NCBI GenBank assembly: GCA_963847985.1
Contig: CAWKBS010000009.1
Coordinates: 59,470-123,469 of the forward strand
DNA length: 64,000 bases
From: an uncultured Actinomycetes bacterium
Lineage (GTDB): Bacteria > Actinomycetota > Thermoleophilia > Gaiellales > Gaiellaceae
Reading direction: 5' to 3'
Made by a program: the position numbers and the translations under genes. Within the stretch, counting starts at the first letter, position 1; each line of letters starts with the position of its first letter. Of this stretch, positions 35,836 to 38,666 are shown piece by piece. The notes beneath the pieces were generated by a model. That model was not told the DNA's origin. It saw nothing but the letters and a program-made list of their open reading frames with translations, and did not search any database.

Positions 35836-38666
35836 GTGTCGAGTTCGCTGCGCCAGCCAACCTCTGCGGCTCCAGCTTCTTCGCCGGCTAGCGGCAACGG
35901 CAAGTCAAGCGCGGACTACGACGGCTTCATCTCGTACAGCCACGCCGTCGACGGACGGCTCGCGCCTGCCCTGCAAAGAGGCCTGCACCGGTTCGCCAAG
36001 CCGTGGTACCGCCTGAGAGCGCTCCGGGTCTTCCGCGACGAGACGAGCCTTTCCGCGACTCCAGAGCTTTGGCCCTCGATCGTCGAGGCGCTGGACGGCT
36101 CCCGCTGGCTCATCCTGCTCGCTTCGCCCGAGGCCGCCGAGTCGCCGTGGGTGAACGACGAGGTCGCGCACTGGTGTGCCACGGACTCGAACGAGAAACG
36201 CGTCATGGTGGTCGTGACGAAGGACGATCACGAAGGTGGCTTCGACTGGGAGACATCGACTGCCGTCCCGCCTGCTCTCCGGACGGCTCTCCCGTACGAG
36301 CCTCGCGTCGTCGACCTGCGCTGGGCGCGCGAGGATGGCGATGTCTCGCTCCAGAACGCGCGCTTCCGCGACGCGGTCGCCGACGTCGCGGCTCCGTTGC
36401 ACGGACGGGCGAAGGACGAGCTTCACGGCGATGACGTGCGGCAGCACCGACGCTCGAGGCGCCTCGCGAGTGCCGCGGCGGTGGTCCTAGGGATACTGGC
36501 GCTCGCCGCGACGATCGCCGCAATCCTCGCCGTCCGCGCGTCGAACCGCGCCGAGGCCGAGGCCCGCGTCGCCACCTCAGTCGGTTTGGCCGGCCAGGCA
36601 GTTGGTGAGTTCGACACGCGGCTTGACCTCGCGCTCTTATTGAGCCTGGAGGCATATCGAGTCGAGCCCACGTTCGAGGCTCGGCGCAGCGGGCTGACCG
36701 CTGTGCAGCGCAGCGCTCGGATGATTCGAGTACTGCGAGGCCACGAGGGTTCGGTGCCTAGCGTCGCCTTCAGCCCGAACGGGGAGACGCTCGCCTCGGC
36801 CGGTGGGGACGGGACGGTCAGACTCTGGGACGTCGCCGAGCGCCAACCGCTGGGCGAACCCCTCATCGGCCACGAGGGTACGGTGTGGAGCGTCGCCTTC
36901 AGCCCGAACGGGGAGACGCTCGCCTCGGCCGGTGAGGACGGGACGATCAGACTCTGGGACGTCGCCGAGCGCCAGCCGCTGGGCGAACCCCTCCTCGGCC
37001 ACGAAGGTTCCGTGTCGAGCGTCGCCTTCAGCCCGAACGGGGAAACGCTCGCCTCGGCCGGTGGGGACGGGACGGTCAGACTCTGGGACGTCGCCGAGCG
37101 CCAGCCGCTGGGCGAGCCCCTCCTCGGCCACGAGATTGCCGCATGGAGAGTCGCCTTCAGCCCGAACGGGGAGACGCTCGCCTCGGCCGGCCTGGACGGG
37201 GCGGTCAGACTCTGGGACGTCGCCGAGCGCCAACCGCTGGGCGAGCCCCTCATCGGCCACGAGGGTCCGGTGTCGAGCATCGCCTTCAGCCCGAACGGGG
37301 AAACGCTCGCCTCGGCCGGTGGGGACGGGACGGTCAGACTCTGGGACGTCGCCGAGCGCCAGCCGCTGGGCGAGCCCCTCATTGGCCACGGGCTTGCGGT
37401 GTGGAGCGTCGCCTTCAGCCCGAGCGGAGAAACGCTCGCCTCGGCCGGTGACGACGGAGCGGTCAGACTCTGGGACGTCGCCGAGCGCCAGCCGCTGGGC
37501 GAGCCCCTCATCGGTCACCAGATTGCCGCACGGAGCGTCGCCTTCAGCCCGAAGGGGGAGACGCTCGCCTCGGCCGGTGACGACGGGACGGTCAGACTCT
37601 GGGACGTCGCCGAGCGCCAGCCGCTGGGCGAGCCCCTCCTCGGTCACGACGGTCCGGTGTGGAGCGTCGCCTTCAGCCCGAAGGGGGAGACGCTCGCCTC
37701 GGCCGGTGACGACGGGACGATCAGACTCTGGGACGTCGCCGAGCGCCAGCCGCTGGGCGAGCCCCTTCTCGGCCATGAGGGTGCGGTGTTGAGCGTCGCC
37801 GTCAACCCGAACGGGGAGACGCTCGCCTCGACCGGCTACGACGGGACGGTCAGACTCTGGGACGTCGCCGAGCGCCAGCCGCTGGGCGAACCCCTCCTCG
37901 GCCACGAGGGTGCGGTGTGGAGCTGGAGCGTCGCCTTCAGCCCGAATGGAGAGACGCTCGCCTCGGCCGGTGACGACGGGACGGTCAGACTCTGGGACGT
38001 CGCCGAGCGCCAACCGCTGGGCGAACCCCTCATCGGCCACGACGAGTACCGTGCGGGAGGTCGCCTTCAGCCCGAACGGGGAGACGCTCGCCTCGGCCGG
38101 ATGACGACGGGACGGTCAGACTCTGGGACGTCGCCGAGCGCCAACCGCTGGGCGAACCCCTCATCGGCCACAAGGGTAGGCTGTGGAGCGTCGCCTTCAG
38201 CCCGAACGGGGAGACGCTCGCCTCGGCCGGTGACGACGGGACGGTCAGACTCTGGGACGTCGCCGAGCGCCAACCGCTGGGCGAGCCCCTCATCGGCCAC
38301 GAGGGTACGGTGTTGAGCGTCGCCTTCAGCCCGAACGGGGAGACGCTCGCCTCGGCCGGCCCGGACGGGACGGTCAGACTCTGGGACGTCGCCGAGCGCC
38401 ACCCGCTGGGCGAACCCCTCATCGGCCACGAGGGTACGGTGCAGGAGGTCGCCTTCAGCCCGAACGGGGAGACGCTCGCCTCAGCCGGCGAGGACGCAAC
38501 GGTCAAATTGTGGGACAGCATTCTCTGGAGTGACGACTTCGATGCCTGGCAGGATCGCCTGTGCGACATCGTGGCGCGGAACCTCACCCTGAGTGAGTGG
38601 GGGGACTTCCGCTCCGGCGCACCGCCCACCAGGACCTGCCCGCAGTGGCCGATCGAGCCCGAGTGA
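35836..38666 (+). CDS. TIR domain / single TM helix / 14 x WD40 repeat protein (two 1-nt frame disruptions in blade 11 as given)
   Basis: GTG 35836 after GGGAGGG. TIR motifs YDGFISYSH, FRDETSL and SRWLILLASPEAAESPWVNDEV. RQHRRSRR plus a 23-aa hydrophobic helix. The WD40 array spans three frames: track ORFs 35836..38316, 37910..38104 and 38310..38666. Confidence 0.8.
36739..38516 (+). repeat. tandem array of 14 near-identical 129-nt (43-codon) WD40 units
   Basis: The period was verified at unit starts 36739, 36868 ... 38424 (GGCCAC). Unit 10 carries +6 nt and unit 11 carries +2 nt. Consensus: [42 protein letters not shown][IL]. Confidence 0.9.

Follow-up and report, generated by a model that had tools for sequence, protein, structure and literature searches.

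The window examined in this study is a stretch of 64,000 nucleotides from an uncultured Actinomycetes bacterium of the family Gaiellaceae (contig CAWKBS010000009.1 of assembly GCA_963847985.1, positions 59,470 to 123,469), and it contains a gene for a TIR-membrane protein that also contains an array of tandem WD40 repeats. We interpret this feature as a highly repetitive WD40 array in which variation is focused on contact hotspots, and we assign this reading a probability of roughly 0.8. The encoded blades share a nearly identical scaffold, while a handful of codons at fixed positions within the unit differ from almost every blade to the next.

Tandem Repeats Finder detects a single array at 36739-38516 with a period of 129, 13.7 copies, 90% matches and a score of 2703, and the Pfam profile PF00400 recognizes 14 stretches in the encoded protein (E 1.2e-173). 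The array and its variable elements are located as follows, with all coordinates being those of the window.

36739-38552, + strand: array of 14 WD40 units (14 Pfam WD40 stretches; Tandem Repeats Finder gives 36739-38516)
s+6 to s+23 for a unit starting at s (unit 1: 36745-36762), + strand: variable patch 1, codons 3-8
s+66 to s+68 for a unit starting at s (unit 1: 36805-36807), + strand: variable patch 2, codon 23
37918-37929, + strand: frame-preserving tandem duplication in unit 10 (TGGAGC-TGGAGC, encoding WSWS) at codons 7-8, which makes this unit 135 nt long

Units encode 43 amino acids and start at 129-nt steps (36739, 36868, ... 38424), except that units 10 and 11 are longer, at 135 and 131 nt, respectively. 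The 13 full units exhibit a mean pairwise nucleotide identity of 0.902 (range 0.853-0.953), and pairwise amino acid identity among the units has a median of 0.84 and a minimum of 0.77. A 28-mer that is invariant in the unit occurs in 13 exact copies, all of which fall within the array in a window-wide count for which the chance expectation is none. The DHSW tetrad (H2, S20, D24 and W30) is likewise unchanged across the 13 full units. Unit 14 remains repeat-like only to about codon 29 and is devoid of the d strand. A preliminary description of this sequence had reported fourteen 129-nt units that are more than 90% identical. The array and its mean identity agree with that account, but units 10 and 11 depart from the 129-nt length and unit 14 is partial.

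Alignment of the units indicates that their differences fall in two narrow patches. Amino acid entropy is 1.7, 1.35, 2.13, 0.99, 2.05 and 0.77 bits at codons 3 through 8 and 2.14 bits at codon 23, whereas outside of these codons it never exceeds 0.99 bits and is 0 at 25 of the 36 codons. Codons 5, 7 and 23 have the highest entropy of all (2.13, 2.05 and 2.14 bits, respectively). Every one of the 21 base columns in codons 3-8 and 23 varies, as compared to 19 of the 108 columns in the 36 scaffold codons (Fisher p=1.8e-13), and mean pairwise identity is 0.652 in the variable codons versus 0.950 in the scaffold. The same partition is evident in the proportion of nonsynonymous differences (pN), which is 0.367 in the variable codons and 0.029 in the scaffold, and in the proportion of synonymous differences (pS), which is 0.285 and 0.109, respectively. 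Thus, the pN of the variable codons is 3.4 times the pS of the scaffold, and variation affects each of the 14 first and second positions in the variable codons as compared to 11 of the 36 third positions in the scaffold (p=9.5e-6). The scaffold, with a pN/pS of 0.26, is under purifying selection and is young, yet it has accumulated some synonymous change. These results bear on several statements in the preliminary description. Its proposal that variation is concentrated in a few codons rather than spread evenly is borne out by the computational alignment (21 of 21 versus 19 of 108 bases), and its statement that the scaffold has few synonymous changes holds in relative terms, although the scaffold pS is 0.109 and 11 of its 36 third positions do vary. 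Its unit consensus and the residues that it listed for codons 3-8 and 23 are also reproduced, except that the "DETVRE" and "D" of unit 11 appear only when two bases are deleted.

The positions that vary coincide with predicted contact sites at the propeller's top face. Hotspots were assigned with a published rule (PMC3419727) that uses the fingerprint V6-x7-S8-V9 (V-R1-R2-V) plus the residue before the tetrad Asp24, and the same study established that R1-2, R1 and D-1 residues dominate top-face contacts across 29 WD40 complexes. Under this rule, codons 5, 7 and 23 correspond to the R1-2, R1 and D-1 top-face hotspots. With an alignment of 64 homologues, AlphaFold yields a confident model of units 1-7 that has a predicted local distance difference test score (pLDDT) of 95.4 and a predicted template modeling score (pTM) of 0.91, with strands a through d formed in each unit (a at codons 6/8-11, b at 17-22, c at 26/27-31 and d at 36-37 plus 42-43). 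This alignment-based model replaced one that was predicted for the repaired 14-blade region from a single sequence and was too poor (pLDDT 49.7). The units 1-7 model assigns codons 3-8 to the d-a loop plus the first part of strand a, and it has codon 23 within the b-c turn. Since the d-a loop and the b-c turn lie at the same end of an antiparallel meander, codons 3-8 and 23 would be on the same face. The hotspot rule for codons 5, 7 and 23 and the modeled strand layout therefore both support the earlier suggestion that the variable positions are on the top face. Foldseek matches of the units 1-7 model include 7-bladed WRAP-T designs, 2YMU (E 1.5e-29), PkwA and WDR5. The model superposes well on 8-bladed proteins too, and no conclusion on ring closure is drawn from it. 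Among solved structures the best sequence match is 2YMU (E 2.4e-195), followed by WRAP-based designs and PkwA, and by homology with 2YMU, a Nostoc WRAP protein, the 14 blades probably fold into two 7-bladed propellers.

Comparison of the units also provides a view of their history. The four-gamete test is failed by 41 of 78 informative site pairs. Units 4 and 7 both carry the cassette ATTGCCGCA in patch 1 yet are distinguished by codon 23 and by 6 sites of the scaffold, and one scaffold type is common to units 1, 10, 11, 12 and 13. Distances in the variable codons are not correlated with distances in the scaffold (Mantel r=-0.28, p=0.90). For example, a comparison of units 1 and 11 reveals differences at 12 of the 21 bases in the variable codons but at none of the 108 bases in the scaffold. 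The four-gamete failures, the sharing of ATTGCCGCA and the uncoupled distances indicate that the array is a mosaic rather than the product of a star-like burst, with exchange between units and with diversity retained at the variable patches. Homogenization with exchange between units, which had been proposed from inspection of the sequence, is consequently supported by the 41 of 78 four-gamete failures and by the identical scaffolds of units 1 and 11.

The array is the C-terminal portion of a single gene with the following elements.

35824-35829, + strand: Shine-Dalgarno-like GGGAGG, 6 nt ahead of the GTG start (from reading of the sequence)
35836-38666, + strand: reconstructed coding sequence of 942 amino acids with two inserted bases removed (TIR domain, membrane helix, linker, 14 WD40 blades and Cys tail)
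35926-36225, + strand: TIR domain, amino acids 31-130 (Pfam PF13676 TIR_2, E 3.4e-7; PF08937 ThsB_TIR, E 6.5e-6)
36160-36162, + strand: codon of Glu109, a candidate catalytic glutamate in the motif S103-x-W105-V106-x-x-E109
36478-36534, + strand: predicted single transmembrane helix, amino acids 215-233, AVVLGILALAATIAAILAV, preceded by RQHRRSRR (Kyte-Doolittle 19-residue mean 2.78)
36535-36738, + strand: helical linker (about 70 residues), conserved in alignment A1, with the non-repeated strand "RMIRVLR" at its end
38517-38666, + strand: C-terminal tail with two Cys (W..C..ARNLT..EW...C.), stop codon at 38664-38666, in the frame reached past both insertions

Both TIR profiles score above their cut-offs (PF13676 with 31.2 bits versus 28 and PF08937 with 26.9 versus 21.2). 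Residues S103, W105, V106 and E109 are unchanged in 37 family members, and together they form what we take to be the catalytic-glutamate motif of NAD-cleaving TIR domains. Positively charged residues are enriched ahead of the helix in the family, with a mean of 5.0 Lys plus Arg upstream versus 3.1 downstream and an upstream excess in 34 of 37 members. This charge bias indicates a topology in which the TIR domain would reside inside, and the propellers outside, of the cytoplasm. The strand "RMIRVLR" probably closes the last blade, because unit 14 has no d strand of its own and because a non-amplified first strand has been described for WRAP propellers (PMC9218822). The tail motif is found in two relatives as well (protein P0361 and locus L002). 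No NTPase domain was found in the 301 residues ahead of the array, which comprise only the TIR domain, the membrane helix and the linker, and Pfam gives no NACHT or NB-ARC domain.

As assembled, the reading frame of this gene is broken within unit 11 (38035-38165, 131 nt), which contains both of the inserted bases.

38043-38048, + strand: first +1 insertion, within variable codons 3-5 of unit 11, exact base ambiguous (31 nt versus 30 in other units)
38101-38102, + strand: second +1 insertion, at the codon 22/23 boundary of unit 11, which puts a TGA (38102-38104) into the local WD frame
38314-38316, + strand: stop codon of the assembled open reading frame (ORF), out of the WD frame, within unit 13

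Three-frame translation indicates that the first insertion moves the WD frame from frame 1 to frame 2, and after the second insertion the WD frame is frame 3. The assembled ORF (35836-38316) exits the WD frame in unit 11, continues for 93 out-of-frame codons and ends within unit 13. Beyond the insertions, the WD frame remains open through units 12-14 and the tail to the stop codon at 38664-38666, and the downstream units are scaffold-identical. The preliminary description had overlooked the two +1 insertions. With unit 11 broken in this manner, the assembled copy is unable to make the full protein. The insertions represent either a very recent inactivation, of the kind known from many highly repetitive propellers, or an error in the assembly consensus. 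All three length changes in the array (the 6-nt duplication and the two single-base insertions) are located in or beside variable codons, with a chance of about 0.004-0.006 under random placement. This clustering could reflect mutation-prone patches or, equally, polishing errors where reads of different units disagree. The longest exact repeat within the array is 101 nt, and the units are thus individually distinguishable. Together with the long intact ORFs in the rest of the window (up to 896 codons) and with a length and blade number like those of the family, the 101-nt maximal repeat makes a gross mis-assembly unlikely. Programmed frameshifting or phase variation was considered and rejected, as the insertions sum to +2 with no compensation, neither is located in a simple-sequence tract and intact relatives need no such mechanism. 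Homologous TIR-membrane-WD40 genes in metagenome bins are also split over two to three frames despite having diverged blades (L001 at 6001-8966, L002 at 5968-9387, and L003, L007, L014, L030, L041 and L061), which reflects either assembly indels or frequent gene decay.

The N-terminal module defines a large family, with an exhaustive search yielding 3,250 cluster representatives at E<=1e-30 that are mostly 900-1000 amino acids in length. Members are spread over several phyla, and their WD region typically has a length of about 1.8 kb, enough for 14 blades. Intact relatives are 920-1000 amino acids long, with examples in Streptomyces, Microbispora and Saccharopolyspora that are annotated only as "TIR domain-containing protein". 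Seemingly truncated homologues were rejected as evidence, as the matches in which they occurred comprised only proteins of up to about 1.75 times the query length, and a full-length query recovers full-length relatives. A subgroup (L032, L035, L036, L041, L043, L049, L050, L054, L056, L058 and L062), most of which are from Bryobacterales/Bryobacteraceae bins, has a WD region of only about 0.9 kb or about 7 blades. A conserved segment occurs downstream of the WD region in 8 fetched loci, most of them from this subgroup. No conserved neighboring gene accompanies the family across 62 loci.

Uniform blades are uncommon among these relatives. The closest one, P0361 (953 amino acids), is 68% identical in its N-terminal part, is collinear with the reconstructed protein over residues 6-924 and has the same Cys tail, but its blades are about 36% identical among themselves versus 84% in the window array. 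Unit identity in 82 full-length family relatives has a median of 0.39 and a maximum of 0.59, with none at 0.6, and Tandem Repeats Finder detects no array with more than 83% matches in 143 loci that have homologues of the N-terminal module. Two further family members, P0311 and P0300, have a unit identity of 0.73-0.75, and in a set of 120 homologues of the WD array 24 have a unit identity of at least 0.7. Since the blades of relatives are diverged while those described here are uniform, the array appears to be a typical case of a recurrent phenomenon that is recent in this lineage. No protein was found with units more than about 62% identical to those of the window, and a degenerate DNA pattern for a 13-residue segment matched no metagenome contig. 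The positions that vary are nonetheless shared, as the three highest entropies include position 5 in 23 of 25 highly repetitive homologues, position 7 in 17 of 25 and position 23 in 22 of 25, and positions 5, 7 and 23 are also the most variable in moderately repetitive family members. A hydrophobic helix is present about 73 residues before the first blade in 107 of the 120 WD-array homologues (P0241-P0360), including 74 of the 83 longer ones, for which source names and Pfam include NTPase, caspase, trypsin-like peptidase and kinase domains. The recurrence of this helix with varied heads suggests that the helix, linker and 14 blades constitute a shared sensor cassette, which is probably extracytoplasmic. 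P0311 and P0300 are 90% identical with blade-by-blade correspondence maintained, and this allows for a comparison of rates between orthologs.

P0311/P0300, hotspot codons 5, 7 and 23: pN 0.182, pS 0.382, pN/pS 0.48
P0311/P0300, WD scaffold: pN 0.056, pS 0.166, pN/pS 0.34
P0311/P0300, N-terminal part: pN 0.022, pS 0.128, pN/pS 0.17

These observations can be assembled into a working model. The array would be the 14-blade WD40 sensor of a membrane protein encoded by a single gene and composed of a TIR domain, one helix, a linker, the blades and a two-Cys tail. In this lineage the blades were probably re-amplified or homogenized recently between conserved flanks, with unequal recombination or gene conversion between units presumably keeping the scaffold near-identical, while R1-2, R1 and D-1 (codons 5, 7 and 23) and their loop neighbors remain different in nearly every blade. 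The outcome would be a chemically diverse top surface on a uniform and very stable scaffold. Ligand binding by the propellers could then be relayed across the membrane to the TIR domain with its conserved candidate catalytic glutamate, and, like its counterparts in other conflict or self/non-self systems, the TIR domain might subsequently cleave NAD+ or produce a signal. The functional steps of this model, namely sensing outside of the cell and output by the TIR domain, are tentative, and we give them somewhat less than even odds.

Several observations weigh against this interpretation of the array. The same array was found in no other strain or species, with the best N-terminal identity being 65% in the genome collection and 59% in metagenomes. 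The assembled gene copy is, by its sequence, non-functional. The placement of the propellers outside of the cytoplasm is a prediction based only on hydrophobicity and the charge rule. As to a putative role in defense, PADLOC returned only weak matches to the N-terminal part (SAVED_TIR at 8e-6 and ThsB at 8e-3) and NCBIfam returned none. As to positive selection, the pN/pS of the variable codons is 1.29 on only about 5 synonymous sites, and their pS exceeds that of the scaffold. In the comparison of P0311 with P0300, the hotspots exhibit about three times the protein-level change of the scaffold, but with a pN/pS of 0.48 they do not exceed the neutral proxy. Positive or diversifying selection on the variable codons is thus not proven, as a ratio of 1.29 on so few synonymous sites may stem from positive selection, from escape from homogenization or from a local excess of mutation. 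Consequently, the earlier proposal of homogenization plus diversification of a binding surface stands with respect to exchange between units and to the top-face location of the variable sites, but not with respect to diversifying selection, which is not demonstrated.

This uncertainty is the basis of one competing explanation, in which the scaffold is homogenized but the exposed loops are merely under relaxed constraint, with no adaptive diversification of a binding surface. The variable codons would then drift freely, and selection or chance would protect them from erasure by conversion. A variable-codon pN/pS that is indistinguishable from 1, the low hotspot ratio between orthologs and the finding that hotspot positions vary the most in every WD40 array examined, even in old and diverged arrays, would all be expected under relaxed constraint. 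We consider it unlikely, though deserving of serious attention, given that the pN of the variable codons so exceeds the pS of the scaffold, that the combination of residues differs in nearly every blade, that the variable positions are experimentally supported contact hotspots (PMC3419727) and that the equivalent fungal positions test positive for selection (PMC1805685). In a different history, a single blade would have been amplified in one recent burst and its copies altered afterwards by point mutation only, with no continuing exchange and with the variable codons marking sites at which selection favored or tolerated change. The diverged blades of relatives do imply that the uniform state is young, Pereira and Lupas argue for fresh amplification from single blades (PMC9218822), and neither the first strand at the flank nor the last half-unit has been amplified. 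A burst nevertheless seems rather improbable to us, as a star-like history is not expected to produce 41 four-gamete failures in 78 pairs, scaffold variants are shared by non-adjacent units, the cassette of units 4 and 7 is present on different scaffolds, and the contrast between units 1 and 11 (12 of 21 versus 0 of 108) would need extreme selection.

The array length, some of the variants and the two insertions could also have been created during assembly or polishing from mis-placed reads. This would explain why both insertions and the 6-nt duplication occur exactly at unit differences (P about 0.004-0.006), as is predicted for mixed read pile-ups, and several frames are likewise needed to read homologous genes from some long-read metagenome bins. 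However, the differences are codon-coherent and concern the three positions that also stand out in 25 independent proteins, the longest exact repeat is 101 nt, ORFs of up to 896 codons are intact elsewhere in the window, and the 14 repeats and total length fit the family, so we give this explanation little credence. We regard as most improbable of all a dedicated mutagenic or mini-cassette mechanism, other than a diversity-generating retroelement, that is aimed at the hotspot codons. Such a mechanism would account for variable-codon divergence that is uncoupled from scaffold divergence, for a synonymous divergence that is also raised in the variable codons (pS 0.285 versus 0.109), and for the location in variable codons of all three indels and of multi-base replacements such as ATTGCCGCA. 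On the other hand, the remainder of the 64-kb window contains no template copy of the unit, all four bases take part in the changes rather than adenine specifically, no partner gene is conserved with the family, and selection plus conversion could give the same picture. If true, a site-directed process acting on the outside-facing propellers of widespread single-pass TIR receptors would amount to within-gene receptor diversification in bacteria. We therefore retain the reading of a highly repetitive array with exchange between units and hotspot-focused variation.

The surroundings of the gene were also inspected. G+C content is 0.65-0.70 across 30000-46000, a region that covers the TIR-WD40 gene, versus 0.71-0.73 elsewhere in the window, and this low-G+C stretch may have been acquired. 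The dip ends near a tRNA-Gly(CCC) gene at 44530-44603 (- strand). No direct repeats bounding the stretch were found, and there was no match for a plasmid origin. The 640-nt intergenic region (35197-35835) immediately upstream of the TIR-WD40 gene, which is of lower G+C, contains at 35451-35473 (- strand) a perfect fragment of a tRNA, namely its T-arm and 3' acceptor (GCGGGTTCGATTCCCGCCTCATC). No complete tRNA surrounds this fragment, and it could be what remains of an integration site. A genomic island with tRNA repeats at its borders was not supported, as this fragment and the tRNA-Gly share only the generic 17-nt T-arm. Upstream of the TIR-WD40 gene are two genes for alpha/beta-hydrolases with a C-terminal TAP-like domain, at 30586-32289 (- strand) and 33472-35196 (+ strand), with a short-chain dehydrogenase gene between them at 32653-33417. 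Convergent to the TIR-WD40 gene is an ORF of 861 amino acids at 38995-41580 (- strand) that has a strong coding signal (third-position G+C 0.90) and no match in Pfam, NCBIfam or PDB sequences. A functional link between this ORF and the TIR-WD40 gene was rejected, since it has no domain match and is never beside family genes elsewhere. Additionally, a terminator-like G+C-rich hairpin followed by T residues is present in two copies that are 77% identical (42974-43017 and 44481-44524), one of them directly beside the 3' end of the tRNA-Gly, and for an ORF of 620 amino acids at 44968-46830 (- strand) the matches to M36 metallopeptidase and "choice-of-anchor" domains are only partial and fall far below threshold.

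The array resembles several systems that have been described, and the phenomenon, including arrays disrupted by frameshifts, is already published. The likeness to WD repeats of fungal NLR proteins and to highly repetitive prokaryotic WD40 proteins that was drawn in the preliminary description is upheld by matching spacing (PMC1805685), by hotspot variation (PMC5587647) and by 25 homologues. Pereira and Lupas (2022, PMC9218822), with reference to Dunin-Horkawicz et al. (2014), describe 14-blade WRAP propellers (WD40-family recently amplified propellers) as linked to TIR or STAND proteins, recently amplified and often disrupted by frameshifts or stops. The window gene resembles the WRAP protein Npun_R6612 of Nostoc punctiforme (2YMU) in having 14 near-identical blades, a non-amplified closing strand and a link to TIR or innate-immunity-type domains, and it resembles WRAP relatives in being disrupted by frameshifts (PMC9218822). 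It differs from Npun_R6612 in having a unit of 43 rather than 41 amino acids and far more hotspot diversity, and from WRAP/STAND proteins in that it has no STAND NTPase and instead fuses the TIR domain into the same protein via a membrane helix. The array is also older than that of Npun_R6612, as the scaffold pS is 0.11 versus no synonymous changes in Npun_R6612. Highly-Repetitive WD40 proteins as defined by Hu et al. (2017, PMC5587647) have an internal identity of at least 0.7 with diverse hotspot sites and a conserved scaffold. The window array shares these traits (identity 0.84, full DHSW tetrads, 14 repeats, and diverse hotspots on a conserved scaffold), although their study is a catalogue that does not include the TIR-membrane architecture, the unit mosaicism or the frameshifts seen here.

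The fungal NWD repeats undergo concerted evolution with positive selection at codons 7, 9, 25 and 27, which flank the conserved codons 8 and 26 and are located on the interaction surface (Paoletti 2007, PMC1805685). Unit exchange and an 18-codon spacing are common to the NWD genes, including HET-E and HET-D (PMC1805685; Chevanne 2010, PMC2873952), and the window array, with codons 7/9 and 25/27 in the former corresponding to codons 5/7 and 23 in the latter. The fourth fungal position, which would be codon 25 in the window unit, is an invariant Gly here. Exchange in the window is seen within one gene (41 of 78 four-gamete failures and shared cassettes) that has no NTPase and is membrane-anchored by prediction, whereas the fungal proteins are cytoplasmic, have a NACHT NTPase, exchange units among about 10 paralogues and have RIP as their source of mutation. 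Actinobacterial receptor-type propellers such as the kinase-WD40 protein PkwA (5YZV) have closely similar WD40 domains (TM-scores of 0.75-0.88 by either normalization), but the output domain here is TIR rather than a kinase or NTPase. In working principle only, the protein is also like the animal Toll-like receptors, as it combines a sensor made of repeats with one membrane helix and, by its predicted topology, a TIR domain in the cytoplasm. The order is inverted, with the TIR domain N-terminal, the sensor consists of WD40 blades and not of leucine-rich repeats, and there is no evidence for common descent of the whole architecture.

Targets of diversity-generating retroelements (PMC10907252) similarly combine hypervariable ligand-binding residues with a constant scaffold and are putative bacterial conflict sensors. 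A diversity-generating retroelement was rejected here because no copy of the unit exists outside of the array in the 64-kb window, all four bases vary and the fold is not a C-type lectin. The five neighboring ORFs that were scanned (hydrolases, a dehydrogenase and ORFs with no match) contain no reverse transcriptase, the rest of the window not having been scanned for one. Thoeris (ThsB) or another catalogued TIR defense system was rejected as well, on account of the weak PADLOC matches and the absence of a conserved neighbor in 62 loci. Current views are not overturned. The gene provides a lead for TIR signaling across a membrane, and a caution that arrays of this type need read-level validation. 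Patterns of this sort mark proteins that probably recognize variable ligands such as those of phage, competitors or non-self, and uniform arrays appear to arise sporadically in a large TIR-membrane-WD40 family in which blades are mostly diverged. What differs from the known systems is that there is no NTPase, that the TIR domain is fused via a membrane helix and that a uniform scaffold is combined with almost saturated hotspot diversity. What remains new is the TIR-membrane-WD40 family, which is uncharacterized, and the way in which contact codons are uncoupled from the scaffold, an unexplained feature for which the window array is a clean case of separate histories.

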